Positions 3,794-55,252 are shown, counted from the first letter of the stretch. The stretch: DNA of 64,000 nucleotides from Candidatus Woesebacteria bacterium (GCA_016432525.1 CP066693.1:96815-160814); one strand, 5' to 3'. Notes: a model not told the origin generated them from the sequence alone. Made by a program: numbers and translations.

Positions 3794-3992
3794 TCGAGTC
3801 TCCTTTATTTGTCTATCGATCTTCTTCTACTTACTTAAATGCTGAAAATGAAATTTGAGTTTAGCAACCTGGTTGCGGGGAATCCAAGAAATCAGAAATT
3901 ATTTTCTGACGTTACAGACTCCCGTTTTTATTCCAACTCTGTAAACTATTATCTCAAAATAAGGCTATTAAGTGCAACTTGGGGAGCGGTAG

Positions 3993-4403: not shown

Positions 4404-4619
4404 TACGGTATTATATGACCTATAGCATATTTTGTCAACGGTAGGAGTTCGGGACCCACCCCACCCTAATTTTCTACTCCCCGAAGTTGATTAAGTGCCT
4501 CTTAAATCCGCAGCATAATTTTCAAATCTCCTACTCGCTGAACTGGTGCTATCATACCTTAATGCTACCTTTGGCATACCCTCCAATACCCATTCTACTT
4601 TCTTTGAGGGCGACGCTCT

Positions 4620-4725
4620 AGGCACGACCATCTATATAATCATTATTATTACTTATAAAGAATGATAATAAAGATAATATAAAGAGATATACGGTAGTAA
4701 ATTCGAGCAAATGTCGTGCCTGGGG
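4620..4725. repeat. Inverted repeat CTAGGCACGAC / GTCGTGCCTGG flanking a ~80-nt AT-rich spacer
   Basis: Seen directly at ~4618-4628 and ~4712-4724. The enclosed sequence is ~85% AT (catctatataatcattattattacttataaagaatgataataaag...). Confidence 0.5.
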
Positions 4726-5071
4726 TCTTAATGTTGTCCGTGTCCCTATATAAATTTATAAATCATAATTGAAAATCCTTTCAGACCATGAAATTGGACC
4801 GATACGACGGGATAATCTCTTGACAAGCTTCTTCAAGTTTGATACGCTGAATATGTTGAAAATTGAATATCCAAAGTAAGGCGGATACTGCTAGGTGAAC
4901 GAGTAATTTCAAGTAGACGCTAGCTGGGCCCGAAACGGTTGACAGGGAATAAAGGTTGGACGCCAAATCACGACCCTAAAAGCTTGTGAGACAACCCTAA
5001 ACCACCTATTCCTGGTGAATTGCACACTTTGTGTGTGTCATCAGGGATAGCCGTTTCAAAGTAACTGATGA

Positions 5072-5101
5072 GCAGCTCAAAGGAGCTGCTTTTTTGTTGC
5101 C
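5072..5101 (+). terminator. Rho-independent terminator AGCAGCTC-aaag-GAGCTGCT followed by TTTTTTG
   Basis: Perfect 8-bp GC-rich stem, 4-nt loop and U6 tract. It overlaps the annotated 5' end of ORF 5068-5406, so that ORF probably starts at the internal Met (~5109). Confidence 0.55.
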
Positions 5102-5108
5102 TTACTAT

Positions 5109-5406
5109 GGATACCAAAACCGATACAGATAATAACTACTTCCGCTCCGATGACCTGCTGATTTCCAGTTTCTTACTTTGTCGTCAAGCACAACTTATAG
5201 ACATTACATCTGATTCAGATTCTTCGCGACACTTTATTTTCACCTTCCAAGACCTCACCAAATGCAGGCAGTTAGTACAGGAATACATCAATGGAGCTTC
5301 AGCCCCAGCTAGGGACCTATTTGCGATGAGAGAGCAGCTACTGACTCAAATGCGAAATCGAGACGGAGACAGAAACGGAGGCAGATATGGCAACACCTAC
5401 AAATAA
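5109..5406 (+). CDS. Hypothetical protein (element-borne)
   Basis: ORF-track ORF 5068-5406. Start moved to internal Met (MDTKTDTD...) because the first 11 codons form the terminator hairpin. Confidence 0.4.
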
Positions 5407-5944
5407 ACCAACCTACATCTATCACTACCGAGAGATTCCCCAATGGCTCAAACAGTCGCCAAATGCATTTCATCTGCTGGCAGAATTTGCCAGGCGGGCC
5501 AGGAGAGAGGAGGCGGATGTGGGTTGGAACGGGGAAAATATCCGCTTACAACCTCGCCAGTTTATAACAGGGAGAATTAGACTATCCCAAGAGCTTGGAC
5601 TTACCGAAGGAGAGTATAGGTCTTCTTACCAGAAGTTGGTGCTATCTGGCCTCATTCGAACCGTTCGTTCAACCAAAAGATATACCGTGGTTGAGTACCT
5701 TGCTGACGGTGTTTTTGGACTTAATCTCCCCTCTGATTTACCATCTGAACAACCATCTGAATTACCAACTGATAACCGACCAACTACCACTAATAAGAAT
5801 GAGAATAATGAGAAGAATTTTAATTCGCGATTAGGGGAATCAACAGAAAAATCGCAAGAATCGCCTTCTTATAAGAACAGCGAAGCATATAAGCGTCTTG
5901 TTGAGCGGAGAAAGGAGCTGGGCCTATGGCCGAAGAAGTTATAG
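5387..5944 (+). CDS. Putative DNA-binding protein, possibly a replication/regulatory winged-helix protein (hypothetical)
   Basis: 185 aa with a basic N-terminal half and an acidic, low-complexity C-terminal half. Translationally coupled to neighbours. Function not established from sequence. Confidence 0.45.
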   Translation: MATPTNKPTYIYHYREIPQWLKQSPNAFHLLAEFARRARREEADVGWNGENIRLQPRQFITGRIRLSQELGLTEGEYRSSYQKLVLSGLIRTVRSTKRYTVVEYLADGVFGLNLPSDLPSEQPSELPTDNRPTTTNKNENNEKNFNSRLGESTEKSQESPSYKNSEAYKRLVERRKELGLWPKKL

Positions 5945-6162
5945 TTGCCCAAGCCCAGACCATCGCCGAGAAACTGAACGACCCAGGCGGGATTTGGTTC
6001 TACTATAAGGCCATCAGAATCCTGGGTTTTGATATTTGTTACCAACTTTGTTCTCATACGCTGGACAAATACCGTCGAGGTGAAATTAAAATTTCCCCTG
6101 GAGCCTATTACAACGGCTGCGTGGCGAAAGAAATTCAGGAGAGGAGGGGCCATGCAGCTTAA
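5926..6162 (+). CDS. Small hypothetical protein (element-borne)
   Basis: 78 aa. Overlaps the previous stop and the next start in an operon-like arrangement. Confidence 0.3.
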   Translation: MAEEVIVAQAQTIAEKLNDPGGIWFYYKAIRILGFDICYQLCSHTLDKYRRGEIKISPGAYYNGCVAKEIQERRGHAA

Positions 6163-6361
6163 TCAAGCAGCCCTGGACGAGTTTAAGAACCTATACGCCA
6201 AGCAATATAGGGTTAAATTGACTGACCAACAGGCACTTGAGTATGGCACCCGACTAATTACTTTTGTCAAAGCAGTCTGTGGTGAGAATTTGCCCAAAGT
6301 ATCGCAAAATAAGTTGATTCTGACCAACCAAAAGGATATTATTAAATTGACTACAGGATAG
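6152..6361 (+). CDS. Small hypothetical protein (element-borne)
   Basis: Internal ATG at 6152 is preceded by a strong RBS GGAGAGGAGGGG. 69 aa. The ORF-track start at 6029 is unlikely. Confidence 0.4.
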   Translation: MQLNQAALDEFKNLYAKQYRVKLTDQQALEYGTRLITFVKAVCGENLPKVSQNKLILTNQKDIIKLTTG

Positions 6362-6378
6362 ATATTGAGAAACAAATT

Positions 6379-8352
6379 ATGGATACAGATATTACTCCTA
6401 AATACATTGGCTACGCTCGAAAATCTTCTGAAGATAATAAAGAAAGACAGGCTGCCTCACTTCCTGACCAGCTTTATGTTATCGACCAACTGAAATCCAA
6501 ATTGGGGCTGAAACTGGTTACTGAACTTCAGGAGAGTAAGTCTGCTCATATTCCACAACAGCGAGAGGCTTTCAAGGAGATGGTCAATCTTATCGAACAG
6601 GGAAAAGCCAATGCTATTGTTACTTGGCACGCTAACCGCTTGGCCAGAAATCCTGTTGATGGTGGTTACATCATTTTTCTGATGGACGACGGCAAGCTCC
6701 TTGAGATTCTTACACCCTCTCGAACTTATCGAAACACTCCCGAAGATAAGTTTATGCTGGGCCTGGAGTTTTCCCTCTCCAAAAAAGACAGCGACGACAA
6801 AAGCGTTGTGGTTAAACGAGGTCTGGAGAAAAAGTTGCGAGATGGTTGGAGGCCTGGCTGGGCACCTCTTGGATATTTGAACGACAAAGGAACTGAAAGT
6901 GGATTTCGGAGAATCTATGCTGACCCGAAGCGATTGCCATTTGTGAGGAAAATATTTGCACTCTTTCTGGCTGGGACACCTGCAACTGAAGTTTTGCGTA
7001 TATCTCAAGAAGAATGGCACCTTACAACACTCCAGCGAAAGAGAATCGGCGGGAAATCACTCTCTTTAAGTGAACTTTATTTGATGCTTAATAACCCCTT
7101 TTACTGCGGCAAGTTTGAGTATCCAATTGGCAGCGGTAGTTGGTATGAGAATAATTCCTCTCTTGAGCGGGCTGTCAGCGAAGAAGAATTTAACCAGGTT
7201 CAAGTTAAGCTGGGCAATATCAGCCAGTATTACACCAAGCACGACTACACTTATTCGGGCTTAATGAAATGTGGCGACTGTGCTTCGGGGATAGTGGTTG
7301 ACGGCAAGTGGCAGGTCATTTGCGCCAGTTGTAAGACTAAATTCCAAATCACCAACAAAAACAAAGACCGATGTACAAAGTGTGGCACGCTGATTGCTGA
7401 AATGACCAACCCCAAAATTCTCCATTACATTTACCACCGTTGCGGCCGAAAGAAAGACCGCAGTTGCCGAGAGTTAAGTATTAGTGAGAAGGAACTTGAG
7501 AGGCAGATTGACGAGAGGCTTTCAGAAATTGAACTTAATCCCTACTTTCTTGAGTGGGCAGTCAAACAAATTGCTCAAATGCACGAGGAGGAGAAATCAT
7601 TCAGAGAGGACACAATAGAGGCTACTAAGCGGGCCCACGACGATTGTAGAAGGCGGTTGGATAACTTGGTGGCTCTCAAGATTGCTCCAACAAACACCGA
7701 CGGGAGTATGTTAAGTGATGAAGAATTTAAGAGAAGAAAACTACCTCTTGAGGAAGAACTTAAAGGTATTGAGAAGCAATTGGTTAACATTGACGAACGG
7801 ATGATTCAGGCCAATAACGACACGGTCAGAGCCGTTACTTTCTGCACTCGAGCTAGAGAGAAATTTGCCACAGACGACCCCAAAGTTAAGCGTGATATTT
7901 TCGTGGGGCTTGGATTGCACCTAACATTAAGAGGTAAAAAGGTCGATTTTGACGCTCCACTATACTTTGAAAAGATAGACGAAATGAAATCCCGTGTTCC
8001 GATTATTGGAAGTAGGGTTGCACCTAATGAAAAGCCCGTCGATATCACCAAAATGGAGGCCTTTTCAGCCTCCATTCCTACCTTGTTGCGGGGCCTGGAG
8101 TCGGACCAGGTCTTGGAGATTATGAGCCTCCCGTGCGGCCACTACACTTCCCCGCATATAACTAACATGCCTATTATATCTCAAAAAAACAGACTTAACC
8201 ACTTTTTCCAGTTCGGATCTGGTAGTTTTACCTCTTTTCTTACTCTTTCAGGCACAAGCTTTCTAAGCTCATCATCTGGTGGCAACACCAAAACAATATC
8301 ATTAGGTTTAGAAAGCCCAAGGCTATCCCTAGCCTCTTTTTCTTTAAAATAG
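6379..8352 (+). CDS. Large serine recombinase (resolvase/integrase family). The native C-terminus is probably near ~8150-8180, and the ORF reads through into low-GC host DNA
   Basis: N-terminal resolvase domain 'YIGYARKSSEDN...ANAIVTWHANRLARN' with the catalytic Ser in ARKSS. Followed by a recombinase domain and a Cys-rich zinc ribbon (CGDCASG...CASCKTK...CTKCG...HYIYHRCGRKKDRSC) and a coiled coil. The last ~60 codons are low-GC and overlap the ftsB-like gene on the opposite strand. Confidence 0.85.
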   Translation: MDTDITPKYIGYARKSSEDNKERQAASLPDQLYVIDQLKSKLGLKLVTELQESKSAHIPQQREAFKEMVNLIEQGKANAIVTWHANRLARNPVDGGYIIFLMDDGKLLEILTPSRTYRNTPEDKFMLGLEFSLSKKDSDDKSVVVKRGLEKKLRDGWRPGWAPLGYLNDKGTESGFRRIYADPKRLPFVRKIFALFLAGTPATEVLRISQEEWHLTTLQRKRIGGKSLSLSELYLMLNNPFYCGKFEYPIGSGSWYENNSSLERAVSEEEFNQVQVKLGNISQYYTKHDYTYSGLMKCGDCASGIVVDGKWQVICASCKTKFQITNKNKDRCTKCGTLIAEMTNPKILHYIYHRCGRKKDRSCRELSISEKELERQIDERLSEIELNPYFLEWAVKQIAQMHEEEKSFREDTIEATKRAHDDCRRRLDNLVALKIAPTNTDGSMLSDEEFKRRKLPLEEELKGIEKQLVNIDERMIQANNDTVRAVTFCTRAREKFATDDPKVKRDIFVGLGLHLTLRGKKVDFDAPLYFEKIDEMKSRVPIIGSRVAPNEKPVDITKMEAFSASIPTLLRGLESDQVLEIMSLPCGHYTSPHITNMPIISQKNRLNHFFQFGSGSFTSFLTLSGTSFLSSSSGGNTKTISLGLESPRLSLASFSLK

Positions 8353-8558
8353 TCACTTCCCACAATCTCCAGCTCATCTTTTAGCTTACTATTCTCATCT
8401 GCAAGTTTTGATAGCTCATCATTAGCCTCCTTTATTCTCTCATCAGCAGATAAAGATCTGGATATATTCCTTGCTAAAGAAATCAAAAGAATAACAACAA
8501 GTCCCCATACAATTATTCTCACCAAAAAATCAATCTTGCTCTTATTTTCCTGATGCAT
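8181..8558 (-). CDS. Septum formation initiator family protein (FtsB/DivIC-like)
   Basis: 125 aa with an N-terminal TM helix and a coiled coil (ERIKEANDELSKLADENSKLKDELE). Its stop abuts the GC shift at ~8180. Confidence 0.6.
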   Translation of the reverse strand: MHQENKSKIDFLVRIIVWGLVVILLISLARNISRSLSADERIKEANDELSKLADENSKLKDELEIVGSDYFKEKEARDSLGLSKPNDIVLVLPPDDELRKLVPERVRKEVKLPDPNWKKWLSLFF

Positions 8559-8645: not shown

Positions 8646-9509
8646 ATGAACCAAGAACCACTTAAATCTCTTCTGCCAAAATTTATCGAAAACCTTAAAA
8701 CTAAGGGTCGTTCACCTGCAACCATCTTAGCTTATAGAGCCGATTTAGAACAGCTTATACTCTATCTTGAAAAGAATAATAAACTAAATGCATCTGATGT
8801 TGCATCAAGTGATTTAAACTCTTTCAGAGATTATTTGCTTGCCCAAAAATATACTCCAAAATCAGCATCCAGAAAACTAAATGCTGTTAAAACTTTTTTC
8901 CGTTGGCTTAAAGATGAAAACATTATAGCAAATGACCCATCAAAAGAAGTTGTCCACCCTAAAATTGAAGCCAGCCAACCAAAATTCTTAAATCAACTCG
9001 AATATCGCGCTTTAAGAGACATTACAAGAGTAGACGCTCGCATCGCAGCCATAATTGAACTAATCTTACAAACTGGAATGAGAATTTCAGAGGTAGCAAA
9101 CTTAAAACTTGCAAACATAAAAGATCATGAAGTAACAATTGAAAGCTATGCAACCCAACCTCAAAGAACAATTCCTTTGAATAATGCAGCCAAGTTAGCG
9201 CTTGATTCTTACTTAAAAGAACGCCCCCAAAGCGATTCTCCTTATACATTCATAAGTAAAAACGGAAAAGTTTTAGCAGTTAGAAACATCAGGGCCTCAA
9301 TCGATCGTTACATGCAAAAAGCAGAAATCGAAAAATTCTCAGTAAATGATTTAAGAACAACTTTTATTGTAGAAAACCTAAAAAGAGGAGTAGATTTGGT
9401 AACAATTTCCCAAACAGCAGGACACAAAAGATTATCAACAACCGAAAGATATTTAGAGCTTGCTGGAATCAAAGAACCAGGTAAAAAGCAAAAACTCGAA
9501 GAGCTTTAA
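8646..9509 (+). CDS. Tyrosine recombinase (XerC/XerD-like integrase family)
   Basis: N-terminal SAM-like domain. C-terminal catalytic motifs include 'HKRLSTTERY' (His-x-x-Arg...Tyr). Confidence 0.85.
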   Translation: MNQEPLKSLLPKFIENLKTKGRSPATILAYRADLEQLILYLEKNNKLNASDVASSDLNSFRDYLLAQKYTPKSASRKLNAVKTFFRWLKDENIIANDPSKEVVHPKIEASQPKFLNQLEYRALRDITRVDARIAAIIELILQTGMRISEVANLKLANIKDHEVTIESYATQPQRTIPLNNAAKLALDSYLKERPQSDSPYTFISKNGKVLAVRNIRASIDRYMQKAEIEKFSVNDLRTTFIVENLKRGVDLVTISQTAGHKRLSTTERYLELAGIKEPGKKQKLEEL

Positions 9510-35904: not shown

Positions 35905-36216
35905 ATGAAACTCGATACAATTACAAAAATAATTTCAATCATTCACCATTTGGTTTGGACAATCATTGGTCTTTCAATAATAGCTCTAGCAATCTTCTTT
36001 ATTAGCTCTGGTTATAAATATCTTCTTAATAATAGTCAGGCCGCTCAAACCAGCAACAAAACAACAAGCCTTCCAACTCTTTCTGATAAGGACTTAAAAT
36101 GTGTTGAGAATGCCATAGGAAAAACACGTTTTGATCAAATAGCCTCAGGCTCAGGAGGCACACCTAGCCCAGATGAGCAAGTTAAGCTCGCCAAATGCTT
36201 CCCAACCTCACAGTGA
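35905..36216 (+). CDS. Hypothetical membrane protein
   Basis: One TM helix. 103 aa. Confidence 0.4.
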   Translation: MKLDTITKIISIIHHLVWTIIGLSIIALAIFFISSGYKYLLNNSQAAQTSNKTTSLPTLSDKDLKCVENAIGKTRFDQIASGSGGTPSPDEQVKLAKCFPTSQ

Positions 36217-36288
36217 GCCTAATTAGCCACAATTATAGGCTTGACAAATAGCACTCTCTCTGATATACTGCTAAAAGATTTAAGGCTA

Positions 36289-36323
36289 GATCCGTTCTTC
36301 GGGGCTAGCTTTTTTTATTAACT
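36289..36323 (+). terminator. Rho-independent terminator GGCTAGATCCG-ttctt-CGGGGCTAGC followed by TTTTTTTATT
   Basis: 10-bp stem with 1 mismatch and 1 G-U, followed by a U7 tract. Terminates the upstream + gene and marks the low-GC side of the island boundary. Confidence 0.55.
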
Positions 36324-36465
36324 AAAGCACATTAAAAATACGAGTGGAACTGGATGACACTTCCCTGGGTATGAGCAATTGCTCGTGCCTTGGTATGTGT
36401 CATCCAACTAAGTGCACAAAGCTGGATGGCCTATCGTTCAATAAGCCAACAAGGTGGAGGGCCAA

Positions 36466-37791
36466 ATGCGTAATAAAATCATCGCAACAGTAGTAGTTAT
36501 TTCTCTTTTGTCCGTAGTCACGCCAGCTTTGGCATGGCACGGGCAATTATCCATTACAGTTGACTGTAATGGCGGATCGGCACGGGTAACCCCTGTACCG
36601 AGTAGCGATGTCGTTGAACAATCTGTTTCTTCCAGCTCTTGGAGTTGGGGCGGTAAAAATTCAATTACCGTATCAGGCCATATCAAATGGCATTATCAGA
36701 GGAACGGCAAATGGGTGGATGAAGTTTGGAATGGCAGCCAAGTGGCAACAAAGCCAAATGGTTGCAGTACACCACCCTCAACGTCTACTACGCCAGCATC
36801 AACATTGACGCAACCCTCGCCGACCCAACCATCAATCTGGAGTCCTGGCTGGGCCGCATGCGACTGGAACGAGAAAGACGTTCCCGCAGAGCAGATGAAC
36901 GATTGGCTGTTCCGCTGTTCACCTAAACAAGAAGTGACGGCAGCAAAACCAAAAGTCAACGACTGTTCGGTTCAAGACATGATTCTGGCCCAGGTCCGCA
37001 ATGGCAGCCAAACCGACATCTGGATTTATCGTCCCGGTGTTGAGGATGGCAAAGGCGCGTTCAAGGTGACGTGGAAACCCGAGTTAAAGGGTCAAAACGT
37101 TAACGCGTCTTTCAGCCCCAACGGTTGCAAGATCGTCTTGTCCAATACTGGTCGACTGTTTGTTGTATCGATCGACGGCTCAAGCGTCGAGCGGATCACC
37201 AACACAGGCAAAGATATTCAGCCCAACTGGGCAAGCGATTGGTCAATCTATTTCGTCCGCAAGGACATTTTGACCGTCACTGATCAATGGGGCAAAAAAC
37301 CCACCAGTTTATCCGTCTCGGGTTTCCTTCCCCATGCTTCGCCTGATGCCAAGCAGATCGTTTTCATCAACGATGGCTTAGTTAGCATTGTTGACAAAGA
37401 CGGAAAGAATTTCAAAGGTCTCGGCATCGAGGCAATTAACGCTCTTTGGACACCAAACGGTGCTGGCCTGGTCTATACGACCACTATGGAGGAATTCTGG
37501 TCCTTCAATTTTGCATCACATGCAACAAAAAGGATCGGAAGACCGTTCGAGTCTCGCCAGATAGTCTTGGATCCTACGGGGCTCAACAGAATGGCCGTTG
37601 CCCAAGCAGTTCCATTGGAATCACCCAAGCTTTGGCTTGAAGGTGAGAACAGCAATTTCGTTCTCAACCTCCCGAACCAGGAAGGCCTCGCTTTCCCTGA
37701 TTGGTGGGTTCCAAGCTCTCGCCGCGCGCGGTTCGATAGTTCAATAGTCGTAGCTTTTCTAACGACAACCACAAGCGACTTGAGCTTTTAG
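36466..37791 (+). CDS. Secreted protein with C-terminal TolB/PD40-like beta-propeller repeats (hypothetical)
   Basis: Signal peptide 'MRNKIIATVVVISLLSVVTPALA' and an S/T/P-rich linker. Repeats such as 'SFSPNGCKIVLSN...VVSIDGSSVERIT' resemble PD40 blades. Confidence 0.5.
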   Translation: MRNKIIATVVVISLLSVVTPALAWHGQLSITVDCNGGSARVTPVPSSDVVEQSVSSSSWSWGGKNSITVSGHIKWHYQRNGKWVDEVWNGSQVATKPNGCSTPPSTSTTPASTLTQPSPTQPSIWSPGWAACDWNEKDVPAEQMNDWLFRCSPKQEVTAAKPKVNDCSVQDMILAQVRNGSQTDIWIYRPGVEDGKGAFKVTWKPELKGQNVNASFSPNGCKIVLSNTGRLFVVSIDGSSVERITNTGKDIQPNWASDWSIYFVRKDILTVTDQWGKKPTSLSVSGFLPHASPDAKQIVFINDGLVSIVDKDGKNFKGLGIEAINALWTPNGAGLVYTTTMEEFWSFNFASHATKRIGRPFESRQIVLDPTGLNRMAVAQAVPLESPKLWLEGENSNFVLNLPNQEGLAFPDWWVPSSRRARFDSSIVVAFLTTTTSDLSF

Positions 37792-37832
37792 TTCCACTCT
37801 CGTACCTGACTTTTTAGTCAGATAAAGCGTTA

Positions 37833-37916
37833 GGTGGTGACACTTAAGTAGGATAGAAAGATGAATATTGATCATTGCGATCAAACAAATTCGTTTTTCT
37901 TACCGAAGTCACCACC
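37833..37916 (+). other. Long-range inverted repeat GGTGGTGAC...GTCACCACC (9-bp stem, 66-nt loop with nested TTGATC-attgc-GATCAA)
   Basis: Seen directly. Lies immediately upstream of the hammerhead motif. Confidence 0.4.
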
Positions 37917-37926
37917 TTAGCGCCAC

Positions 37927-37995
37927 GCAGTCTACCGCGATTAAATCGGTACTGATGAGTCCTGCGAAGCTTTACGCGAAGTGGGACGAAACTGC
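37927..37995 (+). ncRNA. Hammerhead ribozyme motif (type III topology)
   Basis: gcaGUC|UACCG-cgauuaaau-CGGUA-CUGAUGA-GUCC-[21-nt loop]-GGAC-GAAAC-UGC. All core nucleotides are present (C3-A9 CUGAUGA, G10.1-C11.1, G12A13A14, A15.1-U16.1, GUC cleavage triplet at 37930-37932). Helix I is 5 bp, helix II 4 bp, helix III 5 bp. Confidence 0.7.
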
Positions 37996-38030
37996 AACTG
38001 CTGATCTTTCAAATAAGGAGACACTGCCCC

Positions 38031-38633
38031 ATGAGTAAGAAACTTCTGGTCTCAATTTTCGTCATCGTTGTTGTTTCAATTTCAAGCGTTGCTTTCGCCC
38101 AGTCCCGCCCGACCGTTGCCCAGGACATTCCCTGCGAACTTCCCTGGACAACCACTCTTGGCTATTGGATCCGCGTTCAAACCAATTTCAACGATAACAT
38201 CGCATCCAACCTGTTTTTTATGATTAAAATCGACACAGACAAATGGACTGATCCCGAAGGTAAAGTCCACATGCGAGACGAAATAGTACCAGCAACGATG
38301 CATTACAGAGGTGATTTCACCTGTTATGTCATGTACGGCCTGGAAAATGGTGGGTACACCATTTTTAACCAGACAGGTCGCGAGATGTCTGTTAAAGACA
38401 TTAGGTTTTACATTGAAACCGTCGACCAAGAAGTAAGAGAGTCACAAATCTATGTAACATCAGACGGCAAATGGCATCTGCAAATTATTCCTGGACAGAA
38501 GCTTGATCGTAATGTCTGGGAAACTTTTCTCACAAAAAAGGGCTATGCAGAGCATGATATCGAAGAAATCTGGCAAATTGTCCAGAAACTGAAACCTTAT
38601 CAAGTCTTTGAGCTCCCAGCCCACGGCCATTAG
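38031..38633 (+). CDS. Hypothetical secreted protein
   Basis: Signal peptide 'MSKKLLVSIFVIVVVSISSVAFA'. 200 aa. High GC. Confidence 0.5.
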   Translation: MSKKLLVSIFVIVVVSISSVAFAQSRPTVAQDIPCELPWTTTLGYWIRVQTNFNDNIASNLFFMIKIDTDKWTDPEGKVHMRDEIVPATMHYRGDFTCYVMYGLENGGYTIFNQTGREMSVKDIRFYIETVDQEVRESQIYVTSDGKWHLQIIPGQKLDRNVWETFLTKKGYAEHDIEEIWQIVQKLKPYQVFELPAHGH

Positions 38634-38869
38634 TAGTAGCCAAAGTTTGAATATTTTTGGGATGAAGTGAACGCTTCAAAAAGTAGTCCTTCATCCCAAC
38701 AATTTAACCCCATAATATTTGACTTCCTTTATACCTCATGATATCCTATATAATTTTCCATTACCTTAGTACATTCAAATTCTAGCTTTGTTATGAGGCA
38801 AGTTCCTTAGTCCCATAGCAATATGCAGACTATCTCAATCGACCGGTCGATGTTTTTAGGAGGTGCGCA

Positions 38870-39472
38870 ATGTTGCGCAAATACGCAAAGTTCATTATCG
38901 TTTTCGCGTTCCTTGTAGGCTCGCTCGGCTTCCTTGCCCAACCAGCCCACGCAGCAGGAAATTTCTCCTGCTCCATTTCGATCTCGTCAGGCCCAACCTG
39001 GTGGGAAAGAAACTTTACTGTGAGTTGGAGCGGAGCCGGAAATGACTGGCACCAACTCGCCTTTGGCGATGGAGCTCAAACTGGCCTCTTTGGAGACTCT
39101 GGCAACGAAACCCGTCCACACGGGTTCAACCCTGGTAGTTACATTATAAGTTTCAACAACGGTTGCCCGTCACCGTTTACACTTTCCGCCAACCAAAGCA
39201 CCAGTGTTACTGCAAATCCAGCTCCTGCACAATGGGTCGAACCAGACCATCATGCCACCTTTTTCGGCCTGACTGACGGGCCATATTTCCTAGCCTGGCA
39301 AGACGGCGCTGGAAACTACCAGCAAACAAGTTGGCAGCTTGAATCCAAAAAGGCCAAGCTTGGACTAACAATGCAGTCCGGCAAACGCGGCAACTACGCC
39401 ATCGTCAAGAACGGCAAAGTATTCTGCCAGTTCACTATCAACATCGATGGTATTCACAAGAAGAACTGCTAG
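38870..39472 (+). CDS. Hypothetical secreted protein
   Basis: Signal peptide '...FLVGSLGFLAQPAHA'. 200 aa. High GC. Confidence 0.5.
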   Translation: MLRKYAKFIIVFAFLVGSLGFLAQPAHAAGNFSCSISISSGPTWWERNFTVSWSGAGNDWHQLAFGDGAQTGLFGDSGNETRPHGFNPGSYIISFNNGCPSPFTLSANQSTSVTANPAPAQWVEPDHHATFFGLTDGPYFLAWQDGAGNYQQTSWQLESKKAKLGLTMQSGKRGNYAIVKNGKVFCQFTINIDGIHKKNC

Positions 39473-39486
39473 TTCTTCATACCTAA

Positions 39487-39530
39487 CGGGGAGAGATATT
39501 ACAAAATCAAAAATATCAAAACTCTCCCCG
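39487..39530. terminator. Hairpin CGGGGAGAG-[26 nt]-CTCTCCCCG between convergent genes
   Basis: 9-bp perfect GC-rich stem. No strong U-tract, so it is terminator-like only. Confidence 0.35.
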
Positions 39531-39539
39531 TCAGGATCT

Positions 39540-40952
39540 TTAAAACAAACTAATTTGTGCCTTCTTTAATTTTTTCCTCTCAATTCTTTTTATTATCTTC
39601 TCCATTTTTGGATCAATCATTTCAATTAATTTTTCATCTCTCAAATCTTTCAAAAATCTAGATACTTTCATTACCTTTCCATTTCTTCTGCGTGAATACA
39701 TTAAATAAAGTTTCTGTTTTGCTCTTGTCATGGAAACATACAAAAGTCTTTTTTCTTCATCAATATCGCTTCTTTTTTCATTAAAATTTTCCTCAAAACC
39801 AATAATAAACACATTCTCGAATTCCAGCCCTTTTGATGCATGCATGGTAAGAAGTGTCACACAGTTTAAATTCGGATCATAAAACTCTCTTCCCTCCAAG
39901 TCTTCAACATATTCCAAAAATCGCTTTATACCATCCTTGTATTTATCAAATCTTTTAACTAATGACAAAATCTCACTATCTTCTGAAAATTTCTTAACTA
40001 ATTTAGAAAGTTTATCCTCTCTCCCTTCATATTTCTTAATCTTTTCAATTAAAGATTTCGTCTCTTTTTTCTCCCAAATGCTTCCTCCCCCAACCATCTG
40101 ATATGGAATTCCAGATTGCTTTAAAGCATTCTCTACACTCTCTCTCAAAAAATGATTTCTATAAATTACTGCAAAGTCACTAAATTTTTGATCTCCTTCG
40201 TTCACACTATTAAGATCAACCCCTCCAGTTCCAGACATAATCGTTGAAACTATAAAATCCGCTTCAGCTTTGTGATTTAAAAATTCAATTAGTTTAACTT
40301 CACCTTCCTCTTTTTTAATGTTGTGAAGTTTTGTTATTTCTGGAAAAAGTTTTTGAGAAACTGTTGTTATATTTTTGTAACTTCTGTAATTTTCCGAAAG
40401 TTTTATTTCTCTGTATTCAGGAAAGTCCTTTTTGAAAGCTTCAAATATGCCAAAGTTTGCTCCTCTAAAAGAATAAATAGATTGATAAGGATCCCCAATC
40501 ACAATAATGTTTTTGGGAGATATAATTTTTAAAATCTCATATTGAACTTCACTTGTATCTTGAAATTCATCAACCAAAACATGAGAAAAATTTAAGTTTA
40601 TTTTTTTATTTTTCAGAAGTTCCAGAAATTCCAAAAGAAGCCTTTCGTAATCTTCGTCATTTTCTATTTCAAATTGTTCAACTTGGGAAACAAACTGGAA
40701 AGCAAGTGAGTGAAATGTTCCAATAAAAGCTTTATTTTTAAAATTATCTTTTAATCTTTCTTTTATTTCCTGTGAAGCTTTCCTCGTAAAAGTAAGCGCA
40801 AGTATTTTTGATGGATTATTTTTTTGAGAAGTTATTAAATTTTGAAGTTTGGCAACTAGCGTCCTAGTTTTTCCAGTTCCAGGCCCGGCAATCACAACAA
40901 TCGGCCTGTACTGAATTTTCAAAACTTTCTTCTGCTCCCAATTTAACTCCAT
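39540..40952 (-). CDS. Compact UvrD/PcrA-family (SF1) DNA helicase
   Basis: Motifs 'GPGTGKT', 'VLVDEFQDTS', 'VIGDPYQSIYSFRGA', 'LSENYRS', 'LLTMHASKGLEFENV' and 'LLYVSMTRAKQKLYL'. 470 aa. Confidence 0.8.
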   Translation of the reverse strand: MELNWEQKKVLKIQYRPIVVIAGPGTGKTRTLVAKLQNLITSQKNNPSKILALTFTRKASQEIKERLKDNFKNKAFIGTFHSLAFQFVSQVEQFEIENDEDYERLLLEFLELLKNKKINLNFSHVLVDEFQDTSEVQYEILKIISPKNIIVIGDPYQSIYSFRGANFGIFEAFKKDFPEYREIKLSENYRSYKNITTVSQKLFPEITKLHNIKKEEGEVKLIEFLNHKAEADFIVSTIMSGTGGVDLNSVNEGDQKFSDFAVIYRNHFLRESVENALKQSGIPYQMVGGGSIWEKKETKSLIEKIKKYEGREDKLSKLVKKFSEDSEILSLVKRFDKYKDGIKRFLEYVEDLEGREFYDPNLNCVTLLTMHASKGLEFENVFIIGFEENFNEKRSDIDEEKRLLYVSMTRAKQKLYLMYSRRRNGKVMKVSRFLKDLRDEKLIEMIDPKMEKIIKRIERKKLKKAQISLF

Positions 40953-42239
40953 TTAAATAAAGCTAAGCTGTCCTGCATTTTGTGTTCTCTCTCCTGGCTT
41001 AAAAATCTTCACAATTCCATAAACTCCATCATATCCAGGCTTAATATAAATATCTCCCTCTCTCATTTTCTTTATAGCAAACGACAAATCAATTCTCCCC
41101 GAGGCTTTTATATCAGATTCAGTAATTTTTCTTAAAAAAGAAAATTCATCATCAAATTCAAATAAAAGTCGCTCATATTCCTCTTTCACTTTTTTAGATT
41201 GGGTTCTCATACTAAAAGTCTCCGCAACAATCTCATTCAAAGGAACAATATATTCAACAGATTTGTGATTTTTGGGTTTAAAGCTTTCTGGTCTATCAGC
41301 CAAGTCATCAACTCTATGCATGACTCCAATCACAAGAGGCCTTCCGCATTTAGGACATATATTTTTTAATTTTTTAGATTCAGTTGGGGTCAAAGAAACA
41401 TCACATTTTGCATGTCCATCAAAGTGGTATTTCCCCTCTTCAGGAAAAAATTCAATTGTTCCCAAAAATCGGCTATCTCCTTTCTTGATAGCATCAATAA
41501 TTGAGTCATATGATAGTTCGCAATTTAAAAGATTCGCTTCTCGCCCGAGTTTTGGTGGTGAATGTGCATCTGAGTTTGACACAATAGTTCGCCCAGTAAG
41601 TTGCGTTAGTCTCCAATTCATAAAAGGGTCAGATGACAGTCCGCTTTCAATTGCATAAATATGAGGCGATAGTTCTTCAAACGCCTCTTCTATAGAATCA
41701 AACCCCGATTTTGATCCAAAAATAGAAAACCAAGGCGTCCAAATATGTGCTGGGATAAATAGATTACGATCATCTGCTTCTAGTGAAATTCTTAAAAGTT
41801 CCTTGCTATCAAGTCCAAGTATTGGCCTTCCATCAGAATGCAAATTTCCAATCTGGGTAAGTTTAAAATTAACTTCAGAAGCTGCCTCAAAATTTGGAAC
41901 AATTATCAAATTATGAACTCTTCTCACCTTTCCGTTTTTGCTATAAATATTGCTTATCTCAACAGTCAAAATAAATCTTATCAACTTTTTCTTAAAATTA
42001 GCAGAAAGTTTTTTATCCTCTTCTTTTGCATATTTACTCTTAAGCTTAAAAAGTCCGTTTTCGGCTGGTTCCAATTTTTCAGATAGCTCACTAAACCATT
42101 TTGGATGTGTAAAATCCCCAGTTCCGATCACATTGATTCCTTTCATTTTTCCCCATCTATAAAGTGAGGCTATGTTCATTTCAGGACTAGTTGCTCGCGA
42201 GTAGTGCGAATGAATATGTAAATCTACTATCAATTCCAT
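40953..42239 (-). CDS. PHP-domain metal-dependent phosphoesterase with a ~190-aa C-terminal extension; upstream partner of the helicase (TAAATG junction)
   Basis: 'MELIVDLHIHSHYSRA' PHP His motif at the N-terminus. Start set to the internal Met (~42239). Confidence 0.65.
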   Translation of the reverse strand: MELIVDLHIHSHYSRATSPEMNIASLYRWGKMKGINVIGTGDFTHPKWFSELSEKLEPAENGLFKLKSKYAKEEDKKLSANFKKKLIRFILTVEISNIYSKNGKVRRVHNLIIVPNFEAASEVNFKLTQIGNLHSDGRPILGLDSKELLRISLEADDRNLFIPAHIWTPWFSIFGSKSGFDSIEEAFEELSPHIYAIESGLSSDPFMNWRLTQLTGRTIVSNSDAHSPPKLGREANLLNCELSYDSIIDAIKKGDSRFLGTIEFFPEEGKYHFDGHAKCDVSLTPTESKKLKNICPKCGRPLVIGVMHRVDDLADRPESFKPKNHKSVEYIVPLNEIVAETFSMRTQSKKVKEEYERLLFEFDDEFSFLRKITESDIKASGRIDLSFAIKKMREGDIYIKPGYDGVYGIVKIFKPGERTQNAGQLSFI

Positions 42240-42271
42240 ATTGTGATTCCCTATTGTACAATAGTAGAGGC

Positions 42272-43978
42272 ATGCCCGAGACAAAAGAACTTGAAGTAGC
42301 TTACTTTTCCATGGAAGTAATGCTCGAAACAGATATTCCTACCTATGCAGGTGGCTTAGGTGTACTTGCAGGTGATTTGTTAAGATCTTGCTCTGATTTA
42401 GAAATTCCAGCCTGTGGAGTTACTCTTGTTTATAGCGGCAACACTTTCGATCAGGTTATAAATTCAGATGGTACTCAAAACTTCAAAGAAAGCAATTGGC
42501 AAAAGCTTGATCAGTTAACAAAACTCGAAAACCAAATCGAAATTGAAATTTTAAAAACCCAAGTGAAAATCGATTGTTGGAGGTATGACATGGTTGGTCA
42601 CAACGGCTTTGTTGTTCCAGTTTTCCTTCTCGATACAGACATTTCCCAAAATCCAGATTGGGCCAGAAATATTACAAAAAATCTATATGACGGAAATGGT
42701 GATACAAGAATTAGCCAGGAAATTGTTCTAGGTGTAGGTGGCGTTAAAATGCTAGCCTCTTTAGGCTACACAAAAATAAAAAATTACCATATGAACGAAG
42801 GCCACGCGGGTTTTGTTCCTTTGGCTCTTTTAGAAAAACACAACTTTAAAGATGAAGAGGTTAAAAAACTCTGTCTTTTTACCACACACACTCCAGTTCC
42901 CGAAGGCCATGACAAATTTGACTATAATCTTGCATATAAATACGCCGAAAAATATCTCCCTTGGCACATTAAAAAATTGGGGGGTGGTGATGCTCTGGAT
43001 ATGACCACCCTTGCTCTTAATATGAGTAAAGTCTCATTTGCAGTCTCTCAAAAACACAAAAAAGTAAGCGAGAATCTTTTTAAAGGTTATAAATTTGATT
43101 ACGTCACAAATGGAATTCATCTTCCTTCTTGGGTTTCTCCAAGCTTTCAGGATCTTTACAATGAATTTCTCCCGGGCTGGGAAAAAAATCCCGAAATTTT
43201 AAGTGAAGCTCCTGAAAAAATCTCAAACGATGCCCTCTGGACAGTCCACAAAGAATCTAAACGTGCTCTAATAAATTATGTAAATGCGCACCTCACTTCA
43301 GTTGCATCAGAGCAAGAAAAACAAAAACCTAGAGATGACGAGCTCTTTGATTTATCAACTCTAACTCTTTCTCTAGCTAGACGCCCAGTAGCTTACAAAA
43401 GACCTCTACTTTTATATAGCGATTTAGAGCGCTTCATTAGAATTGGTGTCGGTAAACTCCAAATTATCCAGTGTGGAAAATCCCACCCCGGCGACGATGT
43501 CAGCCAAAGTTTTGTAAAGGAAATAGTGCGCATTAGTAAAAAATTAAGATCAATTCTTAAAGTTGTTTATCTTGAAAATTACTCCCCAAAAATAGCCCGC
43601 CTTTTAGTCTCAGGTTCAGATCTATGGCTCAATACTCCCCGTCGCCCTCTTGAAGCGTCAGGTACGAGTGGAATGAAAGCAGCCGCCAATGCAATTTTGA
43701 ATTTCTCAATTCTTGATGGTTGGTGGATAGAAGGTTTTAAGATGAATCCCGCAGCTGGTTTTTCAATAGGGCCAAGCGATGAAAGTGTTACTCCATCAAA
43801 CGATGACACAATCGACTCAGTAGATCTTTACGACAAACTTCAATGGGAAATAATTCCAATGTATTACAATCATAGATCAGAATGGATCAAAAGAATGAAA
43901 AACGCAATTACTTTAGCATCATATTTCAACACTAATAGGGTTGCCAAAGAGTACCAAGATAAAGGTTGGAATCTCTAA
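42272..43978 (+). CDS. Alpha-glucan (glycogen/maltodextrin) phosphorylase, GT35 short form
   Basis: 'LETDIPTYAGGLGVLAGD' and the PLP-lysine region 'EASGTSGMKAAANA'. Start at ATG 42272 with RBS. Confidence 0.8.
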   Translation: MPETKELEVAYFSMEVMLETDIPTYAGGLGVLAGDLLRSCSDLEIPACGVTLVYSGNTFDQVINSDGTQNFKESNWQKLDQLTKLENQIEIEILKTQVKIDCWRYDMVGHNGFVVPVFLLDTDISQNPDWARNITKNLYDGNGDTRISQEIVLGVGGVKMLASLGYTKIKNYHMNEGHAGFVPLALLEKHNFKDEEVKKLCLFTTHTPVPEGHDKFDYNLAYKYAEKYLPWHIKKLGGGDALDMTTLALNMSKVSFAVSQKHKKVSENLFKGYKFDYVTNGIHLPSWVSPSFQDLYNEFLPGWEKNPEILSEAPEKISNDALWTVHKESKRALINYVNAHLTSVASEQEKQKPRDDELFDLSTLTLSLARRPVAYKRPLLLYSDLERFIRIGVGKLQIIQCGKSHPGDDVSQSFVKEIVRISKKLRSILKVVYLENYSPKIARLLVSGSDLWLNTPRRPLEASGTSGMKAAANAILNFSILDGWWIEGFKMNPAAGFSIGPSDESVTPSNDDTIDSVDLYDKLQWEIIPMYYNHRSEWIKRMKNAITLASYFNTNRVAKEYQDKGWNL

Positions 43979-54967: not shown

Positions 54968-55252
54968 CTCCCCCGGTAGGATTCGAACCTACGACCTTAT
55001 CCTTACTCGTACCCCGAAATTTCTTTCGGACGCGGAACTATATCTTACCCATATCATTTTTGATTTAGGGCCCGAGTGCATAGTTTCTGAACCTTCCATA
55101 AATCGTATTCATTCAGATTTATGGCTCGGCTGCGGGTCACCTTGCCAAAAAAGCGAGGGCTTCACGCAATTCTCACGGTTTACATCCTACAGTTTCCTGT
55201 AAGAGCTGCTAAGGAATCACAGGGATCCGCTCTACCGCTGAGCTACAGGGGA
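54968..55252 (-). tRNA. tRNA-Asn(GUU)-like gene interrupted by a group I intron (exon1 55219-55252, exon2 54968-55005)
   Basis: Spliced sequence UCCCCUG-UA-GCUC-AGCGGUA-GAGC-G-GAUCC-CUGU|UAA-GGAUA-AGGUC-GUAGG-UUCGAAU-CCUAC-CGGGGGA-G. U1-A72 and G73 match bacterial tRNA-Asn. The anticodon GUU is split between U35 and U36. Confidence 0.7.
55006..55218 (-). ncRNA. Group I intron (213 nt, no ORF)
   Basis: IGS 5'-UCCUUAGCAG pairs with the 3' exon UAAGGA (P10) and the 5' exon CUGU (P1, U-G at the splice site). Core elements P 'GAAUUGCGUGAA', Q 'CCGCAGCC', R 'GUUCAGAAACUA' and S 'AAGAUAUAGUUCC'. Terminal G precedes the 3' exon. Confidence 0.75.

Follow-up and report, generated by a model that had tools for sequence, protein, structure and literature searches.

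A 3.2-kb high-GC block with three genes predicted to encode exported proteins was found in a 64,000-nt stretch of DNA from a tiny-genome Candidatus Woesebacteria bacterium (herein referred to as the window), together with a genuine-looking type III hammerhead, a putative self-cutting RNA, between genes 1 and 2. The block is compositionally foreign, and its comparison with L004, the one sister species available, indicates a mosaic whose parts have different histories. The explanation that we favor, at about an even chance of being right, is that three separately evolving foreign cassettes occupy a recombination-prone spot and that the junction ribozyme cuts the transcript, giving the mRNAs independent stabilities. 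Coordinates of all features are listed in Table 1.

Table 1. Features of the high-GC block and its borders (positions in the window).
Feature	Position	Strand	Details
103-aa membrane-anchored ORF	35905-36216	+	3' half within GC-elevated zone; end differs in sibling MAG L002
Compositional island	36141-39430	.	Maximum-likelihood two-boundary GC segmentation
Sigma-70-like promoter, near-consensus	36241-36269	+	TTGACA-17-TATACT, extended TG; 11/12 matches
Terminator-like hairpin and T-run	36282-36319 (hairpin 36282-36312)	+	-14.3 kcal/mol, z -3.4
Leader hairpin/palindrome	36351-36406	+	28-nt arms, 79% complementary; centre GAGCAATTGCTC; z -4.2
Gene 1 (P1, 441 aa)	36466-37791	+	Putative signal peptide, orphan N-domain, Thr/Pro-rich linker, Cys-containing middle, PD40/TolB-like repeats (weak) C-terminally
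Small hairpin immediately past gene 1 stop codon	37806-37821	+	Predicted fold
Long stable hairpin (97 nt), directly 5' of ribozyme	37827-37923	+	z -8.0
Type III hammerhead (putative)	37927-37995	+	Rfam Hammerhead_3, MFE fold, descriptor scan, L004 conservation
Shine-Dalgarno AAGGAG of gene 2	38015-38020	+	20 nt downstream of ribozyme
Gene 2 (P2, 200 aa)	38031-38633	+	Putative signal peptide and orphan domain
Hairpin 3' of gene 2	38657-38699	+	z -4.9; kept in L004
Promoter-like site in gene 2-gene 3 spacer	38719-38747	+	Sequence match
Gene 3 (P3, 200 aa)	38870-39472	+	Putative signal peptide, PKD-like Ig domain (~residues 31-121), all-beta C-terminal domain
Terminal hairpin	39482-39535	.	z -7.2; 93% conserved in L004

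An earlier reading of this DNA, made from the sequence alone (herein the sequence-only reading), had described an island of ~50% GC at 36325-39535 in a ~34% GC genome. The island is real and compositionally distinct, with slightly different values: GC is 47.3% in this segment and 36.8% in the remainder of the window, and the segment is the GC maximum among all 3.2-kb windows (mean 37.3%, sd 2.6). Its limits are shifted by the segmentation (Table 1), with support for the left edge at 36031-36341 and for the right edge at 39400-39540; on the left, the island may thus take in part of the 103-aa ORF's 3' half. GC, tetranucleotides, and codon usage, whose comparison with the rest of the genome the same reading had suggested, all deviate here from the rest of the window. 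GC3 of genes 1, 2, and 3 is 0.53, 0.48, and 0.56, against 0.22-0.35 in neighboring genes. RSCU of the three ORFs correlates with that of host genes at 0.01-0.15, whereas host genes correlate among themselves at 0.52-0.93, and the tetranucleotide distance is 0.0385 for the island versus 0.0158 ± 0.0042 for host chunks. The same junctions were found in independent assemblies (L001, L003, L002, a 916-kb NCBI contig, and L004), and therefore the island is not an assembly chimera.

The island is located between a TIM/glutaredoxin cluster and a UvrD-like helicase/PHP pair, and other secreted-protein genes adjoining it are host-like in GC. Within and next to 36.0-39.6 kb, neither a mobility gene nor a tRNA was found, and the borders carry no flanking or direct repeats. 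At 4.4-8.4 kb, the window also contains a distinct integrative element, which carries a large serine recombinase and, at 44%, has a GC content similar to that of the block.

At the upstream edge, the hairpin with the T-run probably terminates the transcript of the 103-aa ORF, and the promoter-like sequence may, judging by its match to the consensus, drive gene 1. Two deletions distinguish the sibling MAG L002, whose contig ends at 38652: positions 36157-36270, including the promoter-like sequence, are missing, and a 203-bp deletion frameshifts gene 1. The leader hairpin lies 60 nt upstream of the gene 1 start. It contains the inverted repeat and palindrome reported previously, although not at 36373-36427, which was off by ~21 nt: the arms are at 36352-36360 and 36397-36405, and GAGCAATTGCTC is at 36373-36384. 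For gene 1, initiation at the ATG at 36466 is more likely, giving 441 aa and not the 445 aa reported; the GTG at 36454 falls within a Shine-Dalgarno-like AAGGTGGAGG, and gene callers in public assemblies pick the 441-aa form. The 200-aa lengths of P2 and P3 were given correctly.

All three ORFs are predicted to be coding and exported. Signal peptides were called heuristically (two K/R near the N-terminus, a 12-residue hydrophobic core, and an AxA motif), and by this measure each protein starts with one, as had been proposed: ALA/W in P1, AFA/Q in P2, and AHA/A in P3. Coding is supported by a dN/dS of 0.18 for gene 3 and by a full-length match of P2 to its one remote relative, P0032 (E 2e-13). 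Among 5.8 billion proteins, matches were found solely in the window's own population and on one sister contig. This agrees with the earlier description of lineage-restricted proteins lacking housekeeping relatives, and all three appear to be orphans except for the PKD-like domain of P3.

The TolB/PD40-like beta-propeller previously assigned to the C-terminus of P1 is weakly supported. P1 matches TIGR02800 (TolB propeller) in two stretches with E 4e-8, although at ~32.5 bits against a cut-off of 343, as well as DPPIV_N (E 0.004-0.012) and PDB 2ojh (E 0.03); no PD40 Pfam match to P1 was found. Additionally, four [ST]P[ND]G-type motifs (SPNG, SPDA, TPNG, and DPTG) are located at residues 217, 292, 329, and 369. 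P3, which has four conserved Cys, would be a member of a small secreted PKD-like protein family. Its relatives detected by phmmer (E down to 2e-28) bear PKD_4/PKD across the homologous repeats; no direct Pfam PKD match was found for P3 at E <= 10, and the AF2 model of its N-terminal half is of low confidence. The promoter-like site in the preceding spacer is a candidate for gene 3's own promoter. The terminal hairpin, between gene 3 and the convergent UvrD-like helicase gene (39540-40952, - strand), is likely a bidirectional terminator.

Genes 2 and 3 and the ribozyme are present in L004 at the same locus, beside the same helicase and with the same high GC; by the refuting condition that the sequence-only reading had set, this speaks against a recent gain of the block by this strain. 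The divergence of the parts is highly uneven. The housekeeping genes for helicase and PHP have dS of 0.67 and 0.88 against L004. Gene 2, at 98.3% DNA identity, has dS of 0.032, and a ~150-nt stretch of the gene 2-gene 3 spacer is identical. For mature gene 3, dN is 0.37, synonymous sites are saturated, and protein identity is 58%; thus, it is more diverged than the housekeeping genes, and both alleles hold GC3 of 0.53-0.56. Both genes are therefore phylogenetically incongruent with the flanks. Along the alignment, the 3' end of the ribozyme is the point where ~90% identity gives way to 98-100%, and no homology remains on the 5' side of the long hairpin's base. The tract from the ribozyme 3' end through gene 2 and the spacer was exchanged very recently (dS 0.03). 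In the window, the helicase and PHP genes are contiguous, whereas in L004 they are separated by an unrelated high-GC ORFan; this is a true insertion/deletion difference.

The recent horizontal acquisition claimed by the sequence-only reading is accordingly retained in part: the composition is foreign and the gene 2 tract was exchanged very recently, but the block is not one recently acquired cassette. Since its parts differ in history, the cassettes would be exchanged by recombination, either between related lineages or with a higher-GC gene pool as yet unsampled. No empty site was found, the locus being occupied in L004, the sole relative available. No donor lineage or mobility gene was found either, and it is composition and mosaic divergence that argue for a horizontal origin.

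The block could instead be an old resident locus whose high GC arose locally, either through GC-biased gene conversion at a recombination hot spot or through selection on these mRNAs. Such an origin would fit the shared locus in both available species, the direct evidence of recent recombination within the block, the GC3 kept by both diverged gene 3 alleles, the GC-richness of family members in every low-GC host examined, and the lack of any donor or mobility gene found. We nevertheless consider it unlikely: GC3 changes by a very large step, from ~0.25 to 0.5-0.67, with sharp borders, codon usage is not simply shifted but has no correlation with that of the host, the adjoining secreted-protein genes remained host-like, and an unrelated high-GC ORFan is inserted nearby in L004.

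The hammerhead attributed to the island by the sequence-only reading was recovered on the + strand with a complete core and three helices, 35 nt from gene 2. Stem III is formed by GCAGU/ACUGC and stem I by UACCG/CGGUA, and stem II consists of a long 7-bp stem, an internal loop, and a distal hairpin; the descriptor scan accordingly reports stems of 5, 7, and 5 bp. The core (CUGAUGA...GAAA) and the NUH triplet are canonical in all catalytic nucleotides. The triplet is GUC (GUC/U at 37930-37933), with the cut predicted between C37932 and U37933. A three-way junction with stem III open is obtained for 37925-37997, and for 277-347 in L004, in the MFE as well as the centroid fold. Judged by eye, base pairing of loop I (..UAAA..) with UUUAC, the loop at the distal end of stem II, could be possible, more weakly in L004; fast cleavage requires a tertiary contact between loops I and II. 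The Rfam RF00008 score is 33.8 bits (E 1.2e-4 when 4 kb were searched and 2.2e-3 for 70 kb), and that of the L004 orthologue is 38.6; both are below the gathering threshold of 48.5, mainly because of a 20-nt insertion in stem II and a 9-nt loop I. The descriptor scan covered both strands of 1.36 Mb and found type III hammerheads only in the window population, L004, and L091 (two copies), with 0-2 matches per whole set in shuffled controls.

In the single orthologue, from L004, the core and stem III are unchanged, stem I has one double compensatory change (C-G to U-A), and stem II has three one-sided changes with pairing kept and no pair broken. The long hairpin of L004 has a common base (GCG..AGGUG / CACCUUAGCGC) and a different interior (z -7.4). 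Cleavage is predicted to have no effect on how accessible the ribosome-binding site of gene 2 is.

P3-like genes form high-GC islets in other genomes as well (L088-90, L091, L093, and L094). The small secreted relatives of P3 are high-GC in every low-GC genome with flanking sequence, in at least four lineages, and these genomes are unrelated and CPR-like. Two single-gene islets of 53-55% GC were found among ordinary cellular genes in L091, a ~38% GC genome. Each of them ends, at its 3' end and on the coding strand, in a hammerhead located where GC falls to the host level, and no same-strand gene was found downstream of either ribozyme in L091. A long hairpin precedes three of the four ribozyme copies (window, L004, and L091 islet 1). 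In L091 islet 2, the leader and the segment before the ribozyme have 16-nt complementarity (-37 versus -21 ± 3 kcal/mol). Ribozymes are absent in two of the four lineages with P3-like islets and upstream of the remote P2 relative; hence, the ribozyme is dispensable for these genes. The finding in the window gains mildly in importance, as related high-GC islets in another such bacterium bear the same ribozyme.

In the favored explanation, each cassette would encode a small exported protein, and genes 1 and 2 would be co-transcribed. Self-cleavage at the predicted site would leave the gene 1 mRNA with a 2',3'-cyclic phosphate nine nucleotides past the 97-nt hairpin, which would shield it from 3' exonucleases. 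The gene 2 mRNA would begin with a 5'-OH and two ribozyme hairpins before the ribosome-binding site, and the two messages would gain independent stabilities. Because the order in L091 is gene then ribozyme with no same-strand gene after, the common role is best read as ribozyme-made 3' ends. Most likely, the ribozyme would cut the transcript at cassette junctions and so produce hairpin-capped 3' ends.

A decayed prophage or phage-satellite remnant, with the ribozyme left over from phage transcript processing, is quite improbable. In its favor, published work connects hammerheads in bacteria with prophages and with small ORFs of unknown function (PMC3088659, PMC6155905), and the same window contains the element with the serine recombinase. 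However, no phage-like gene was found in or adjoining the block, with no PHROG match below E 0.03, and no relatives were found in IMG/VR contigs, INPHARED phages, or plasmids. This hammerhead variant is missing from viral contigs, and the L091 islets are surrounded by ordinary cellular genes.

The hammerhead could also mark the end of an RNA-mediated mobile cassette whose transcript would be trimmed by the ribozyme and then either be copied into DNA again or recombine, so that ribozymes would come to lie at cassette junctions, as in retrozymes or the R2 HDV-like ribozyme. The ribozyme does coincide with a boundary in all three cases: in the window, identity with L004 jumps at its 3' end and homology ends 5' of the hairpin base, and both L091 copies are at the drop to host GC; the end complementarity of L091 islet 2 would also fit. 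This possibility is nevertheless very doubtful. No reverse transcriptase, integrase, or target-site duplication was found near any cassette, no motif is common to the flanks of different cassettes, and the end complementarity is missing in L091 islet 1 and in the window. Moreover, a 3' type III hammerhead stays nearly whole on the downstream fragment, and therefore the ribozyme would not travel with the upstream gene.

That the motif is inactive or a chance match, the spacer structures being simply terminators, is highly improbable: both scores are under the Rfam threshold and the MFE fold of a longer context lacks stem III, but the core and GUC site are canonical, only ~0.03 descriptor matches are expected per window by chance (3 matches in 5 shuffles of 2.7 Mb), L004 keeps the core and helices though the sequence just upstream is unalignable, and two further canonical copies occur in like context in L091.

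More speculatively, and with rather little probability, a pool of high-GC secreted-protein cassettes, each with a single gene and bounded by type III hammerheads, may be common to low-GC CPR bacteria, the ribozyme acting in transfer or recombination or as an obligatory 3'-end-forming signal that replaces terminators. If true, this would be a ribozyme-delimited mobile gene cassette system in bacteria.

Among known systems, PKD-domain surface proteins (PF18911/PF00801) contain, in the repeats of large PKD-annotated members, the motif W..L.FGDG....G.SG....H.Y..G.Y found in the N-terminal half of P3. In contrast to them, P3 is a 200-aa, single-repeat protein with an unassigned C-terminal beta domain, and it gives no match to the Pfam PKD models at E <= 10.

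Bacterial hammerheads flank small non-conserved ORFs, and the standing hypothesis for them is processing of polycistronic mRNA (PMC3088659, PMC6155905, PMC6765202); prophages are their usual home. With the bacterial type III hammerheads (RF00008; Perreault et al., 2011, PMC3088659; de la Pena et al., 2017, PMC6155905), the window element shares the CUGANGA/GAAA core, GUC, three helices, and open stem III, as well as an intergenic, coding-strand position near small non-conserved ORFs. It differs in its CPR host without prophage or integrase context, in the presence of one ribozyme per gene and not of pairs flanking an ORF, and in the unusually long stem II, with the insertion relative to the model. 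Its position is also different, at the edge of foreign secreted-protein cassettes, with a long hairpin before most copies.

RiboJ is a synthetic insulator part composed of a hammerhead plus a hairpin. The window element resembles it in that a hammerhead, combined with a hairpin, separates upstream RNA from a ribosome-binding site or ORF further down, so that, on cleavage, the message downstream would become independent of the sequence before it. Unlike RiboJ, it is natural, its hairpin is upstream and not downstream of the ribozyme, and insulation by it is inferred.

Retrozymes (PMC4918200) and the R2 HDV-like ribozyme (PMC6765202) likewise have a small self-cleaving ribozyme at the boundary of a mobile or exchangeable unit. 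Those systems are eukaryotic, with repeats and RT-dependent spread, whereas no RT, repeats, or circular form is indicated in the window. With genomic islands and ORFan islets formed by horizontal transfer, the block has in common a sharp break in GC, GC3, codon, and tetranucleotide usage, lineage-restricted genes, and strain-level structural variation. It differs from them in borders without integrase, tRNA, or direct repeat, in a locus occupied in the sister species, in an internal mosaic of very recent and very old segments, and in the fact that the same protein family builds similar islets in unrelated low-GC genomes.

The three-gene island differs strongly in composition from the rest of the window, as the sequence-only reading had proposed. 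Its GC content is 47.3% versus 36.8% elsewhere, the top value among the 3.2-kb windows in the 64 kb, and the GC3 values of genes 1, 2, and 3 are 0.53, 0.48, and 0.56, versus 0.22-0.35 in neighboring genes. Codon usage of the island genes is uncorrelated with that of host genes (r 0.01-0.15, versus 0.52-0.93 between host genes), and the tetranucleotide distance of the island from host chunks exceeds 5 SD. Limits were set by likelihood segmentation, with the originally proposed limits lying inside the support intervals, and flanking hairpins are present at both edges. The inverted repeat described for the gene 1 leader exists, but ~21 nt away from the position first assigned to it. The island genes were found on a 916,571-bp NCBI contig (locus tags HY044_007xx, exact protein match), with 100% identity on two Logan assemblies of the same population (L001 and L003), and on a contig of a sibling MAG (L002, GCA_016178105.1). 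Five independent assemblies have identical junctions, which excludes an assembly chimera.

The window, which belongs to a Candidatus Woesebacteria (CPR/Patescibacteria) genome, also encodes tRNAs and a tmRNA, and the island is flanked in it by two groups of minus-strand genes. One group includes glycolysis and pentose-phosphate genes, a glutaredoxin gene, and genes for two membrane proteins, and the other consists of the genes for a UvrD-like helicase and a PHP-domain protein. These two genes are adjacent in 63 of the 80 loci with PHP relatives (L005-L084), belonging to very diverse bacteria, which suggests a conserved two-gene module. Rfam matches to 'n00280' inside the helicase gene, in the window and in the sister-species contig L004, are probably conserved coding sequence and not an sRNA. 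Two candidate features were rejected: a 16-nt inverted match has its second arm within the helicase gene and is within chance range, and a template/variable repeat pair, as in a DGR, is absent from 35.8-39.9 kb.

Features of the window and of the compared loci (L002 segments in window positions).
Sequence	Feature	Position	Strand	Properties
Window	Atypical block	4400-8400	+	44% GC; GC3 0.41-0.48; four ORFs
Window	Large serine recombinase	6379-~8084		Resolvase, Recombinase, and Zn-ribbon domains
Window	tRNA-Met	8085-8156	-
Window	tRNA-Ile	10485-10559	-	Anticodon TAT (UAU); ARAGORN
Window	Island	36141-39430
Window	16-nt inverted match	36348-36363 / 39851-39866
Window	Leader inverted repeat	36352-36405
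Window	Motif in gene 1 leader hairpin	36353-36372		GACACTTCCCTGGG
Window	Gene 1	36466-37791	+	441 aa
Window	97-nt hairpin	37827-37923		z -8.0
Window	Hammerhead_3	37925-37997		33.8 bits; E 1.2e-4
Window	Predicted cleavage site	C37932/U37933		GUC/U
Window	Gene 2	38031-38633	+
Window	Gene 3	38870-39472	+
Window	Helicase/PHP pair	39540-42284	-
Window	'n00280' match	39688-39785
Window	Candidate group I intron	55013-55228	-	49.4 bits; E 1.7e-9
L002	Missing segment	36157-36270		114 bp
L002	Missing segment	37357-37559		203 bp
L004	'n00280' match	2017-2115
L004	ORFan	3398-4018	-	206 aa; 47% GC; GC3 0.43
L086	Leader hairpin	413-462		Contains GTCACTTCCTGGGC
L091	~250-nt leader	7650-8000		GC-rich hairpins
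L091	Leader promoter	~7716-7745		TTGACA...TATTAT
L091/L092	Hammerhead 1	8773-8823	+
L091/L092	Hammerhead 2	13760-13703	-
L091	~16-nt complementarity	14686-14703 / 13762-13779		-37.1 kcal/mol
L094	Hairpin repeat units	1330-1800		At least 3 copies

Classical signal-peptide features were found in all three products (P1, P2, and P3), in agreement with the initial reading. For gene 1 the ORF stands and its length does not, the ATG at 36466 being the most likely start; a TolB-like propeller in P1 is weakly supported. Word-indexed protein searches with P1-P3 gave matches limited to the window's own population and the 5.9-kb contig L004 (GCA_040960765.1). Remote relatives were detected only by an exhaustive HMMER search, for which mature P2, mature P3, and the P1 N-domain were concatenated into one query. 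The N-terminal half of P3 matches the repeat W..L.FGDG..TGLFG.SG.E.R.H.Y.PGSY, found in 4-6 copies in large proteins labelled PKD/PKD_4 by Pfam and in one or two copies in small (200-340 aa) secreted proteins. P2 has one remote relative, P0032, matching over the full length (29% identity, pairwise E 2e-13), and this search found no relatives of the P1 N-domain. No relatives of P1-P3 were found in PHROGs, NCBIfam, phage genomes, plasmids, or viral contigs, and PDB sequence searches gave no meaningful match. The AlphaFold models are of too low confidence to draw on (pLDDT 58 for P3 and 52 for P2); Foldseek with the P3 model returned generic tandem-Ig matches alone, none at E <= 1e-3. At its left end, L004 has a gene tail that by eye resembled the P1 C-terminus; this likeness was rejected because 51 of 500 shuffles reached its score.

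The hammerhead ribozyme claimed for the island was recovered as a complete motif with all parts of type III. Rfam reports nothing at this site at the gathering threshold, and the match was obtained by a sensitive Rfam search. The motif includes stem III (GCAGU/ACUGC), stem I (UACCG/CGGUA), a long stem II, and the core segments CUGAUGA and GAAA. The minimum-free-energy fold of the isolated hammerhead is the expected three-way junction. A 97-nt hairpin is located immediately 5' of the hammerhead, and the Shine-Dalgarno sequence of gene 2 lies 20 nt 3' of it. Other ribozyme classes were absent from the island at Rfam E <= 10, and the window ribozyme variant is absent from the viral contigs, phage, and plasmid data searched. 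An integron attC reading of the 97-nt hairpin was rejected both for its ends, GTTAGGT/ACCTTAGC, which by eye are in reverse order to R''/R', and for the absence of a nearby integrase. A hairpin in the leader of the P0032 gene (locus L086) contains GTCACTTCCTGGGC, which resembles GACACTTCCCTGGG in the gene 1 leader hairpin; this likeness is probably a coincidence.

The divergence of the helicase (81.6% DNA and 74% protein identity) and PHP (85% and 91%) genes indicates that L004 belongs to a different species. Beside the same helicase, L004 carries the ribozyme (38.6 bits), genes 2 and 3, and the terminal hairpin, and the GC there is as high as in the island. The two ribozymes share an identical core and stem III and differ solely in stems I and II and in the loops of these stems; pairing is kept throughout, with one double compensatory substitution (C-G to U-A) and three one-sided ones. 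The sister species thus keeps a canonical type III hammerhead, as predicted from sequence. The pre-ribozyme hairpin of L004 is long (z -7.4), with the same base as in the window and a different interior; 5' of this base, the window and L004 can no longer be aligned. The helicase and PHP genes directly adjoin each other in the window; in L004 they are separated by an inserted, unrelated ORFan with neither a signal peptide nor a Pfam match.

Identity between the window and L004 rises from ~90% to 98-100% at the ribozyme 3' end and decays in gene 3 just past the signal peptide, and a ~150-nt stretch within the gene 2-gene 3 spacer is identical. Nei-Gojobori estimates for this pair are dS 0.032 and dN 0.011 in gene 2 (5 synonymous and 5 non-synonymous codon differences), 0.67 and 0.16 in the helicase gene, and 0.88 and 0.06 in the PHP gene; for the mature part of gene 3, dS is saturated and dN is 0.37. 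The identity pattern and the dS values thus place the common ancestor of the tract from the ribozyme 3' end through the gene 3 signal peptide much later than that of the surrounding chromosome. The gene 3 alleles are much older or faster-evolving, and GC3 exceeds 0.5 in both.

The aligned segments of L002 are 99.99-100% identical to the window. This contig, which ends at window position 38652, just past gene 2, lacks two segments, and loss of the longer one frameshifts gene 1 to 323 aa. Microhomology is absent at the deletion junctions, and the deletions may be real population variants or assembly errors. The single recent acquisition proposed initially does not survive: mosaic divergence, the L002 deletions, and the L004 ORFan insertion point to a recombination- and insertion-prone neighborhood instead. 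The 90% clusters of five neighboring proteins have members from the window population and L004 only. In the synteny check, a PHP-neighbor scan of genome contigs gave a best match of 61% identity and P1-P3 in none of the 80 loci, universal motifs being dominant; a metagenome scan with a lineage-specific helicase segment gave one 30% relative, with chance 7-mer matches swamping the result. Derivation of the high GC from an external, higher-GC gene pool is favored: the boundaries are sharp, codon usage shows no correlation with the host, insertion differences are genuine, and the GC-rich alleles have diverged past saturation. Alternatively, an in-situ process, e.g., biased gene conversion, may have made the high GC.

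GC-rich P3-like genes were found in other genomes. In L088-L090, such a gene (GC3 0.54) is located at the end of a 4.3-kb block of 52-56% GC in a host of 36-40% GC, with no hammerhead at Rfam E <= 5. Hammerheads are likewise absent from L093 (a one-gene islet, GC3 0.67, host GC 31-40%) and L094 (a short contig, GC3 0.56). Two hammerheads were found in L091/L092 (GC3 0.63, host GC ~38%). L091 is an unrelated CPR-like contig whose ordinary genes include tRNAs, UvrA/C, and sortase, and Rfam gave a Hammerhead_3 candidate 147 nt 3' of the P3-like gene's stop codon. Both strands of the window and of all 93 compared loci (1.36 Mb) were scanned with a neutral type III descriptor, which matched in three places only: the window population, L004, and L091/L092, the last with two sites. 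Block-shuffled controls gave 1, 0, 0, 2, and 0 matches. The second L091 ribozyme (GUC site, CUGAUGA core, stem II capped by GGAA) lies 3' of another single-gene islet (54-55% GC), whose membrane-anchored product has a Thr-rich linker. Each L091 ribozyme occupies the coding strand at the islet 3' edge, where GC drops to the host level, and faces a host gene that runs convergently; long hairpins (z -5.8) lie 5' of the first one. The gene-then-ribozyme order recurs at foreign islets of another CPR-like genome. No ribozyme was found at L086, and cassette flanks have no motif in common across lineages.

Several additional elements were observed at these loci. The leader of the L091 islet 2 gene is complementary to a segment just 5' of the hammerhead (-20.8 +/- 3.2 kcal/mol in shuffles); it could represent terminal inverted repeats or a 5'/3' mRNA panhandle, and such end complementarity is absent from L091 islet 1 and from the window. 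Directly 3' of a cluster of four tRNA genes, a leader without Rfam match separates a near-consensus promoter from the L091 P3-like gene. Downstream of the L094 P3-like gene, hairpin repeat units have the form (T)TAGATTCC...GGAATGAC.

Elsewhere in the window, the reading frame of a large serine recombinase continues through tRNA-Met, and the surrounding atypical block resembles a small integrative element with a tRNA gene as its insertion site. A candidate group I intron, scoring slightly below the Rfam gathering score of 50, sits in a locally GC-elevated stretch. The window also encodes a tRNA-Ile with a UAU anticodon, an uncommon bacterial way to read AUA.

At cassette junctions, the ribozyme would self-cleave the transcript, leaving the upstream mRNA capped by a hairpin and ending in a 2',3'-cyclic phosphate. 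For the window, the predicted second product is a gene 2 message that has a structured leader and starts with a 5'-OH. Unmasking of the ribosome-binding site by cleavage found no support: its predicted accessibility is unchanged, so any effect would be exerted via RNA ends and stability. This proposed role agrees with the prevailing hypothesis on bacterial hammerheads, which involves polycistronic transcript processing and 3'-UTR effects (PMC3088659, PMC6765202). The coincidence of ribozymes with segment boundaries also allows ribozyme-delimited mobile cassettes, but no reverse transcriptase, integrase, repeat, or shared end motif was found. If transcript cleavage is real, the locus offers a testable model in which ribozymes make hairpin-capped mRNA 3' ends and insulate neighboring cassettes; if the ribozyme is incidental, an ordinary ORFan island remains.

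In total, the island is a compositionally foreign, mosaic three-gene cluster for exported proteins. The small secreted PKD-like family is GC-rich within several very AT-rich symbiont genomes, and its proteins are candidates for cell-surface or host-contact roles in organisms depending on other cells. Hundreds of bacterial hammerhead ribozymes have been described, and their biological role is an open question (PMC6765202). Outside prophages, the locus is a clear-cut natural example, with one ribozyme placed after a large hairpin and exactly at the junction of cassettes with demonstrably different histories. The ribozyme class is already known, as is its context beside small non-conserved ORFs (PMC6155905), which the window locus fits. 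New are the CPR host, the literature searched showing no link between hammerheads and CPR/Patescibacteria; the non-phage setting, with an upstream hairpin and a junction between cassettes of measurably different histories; and the recurrence of hammerheads with GC-rich secreted-protein islets.
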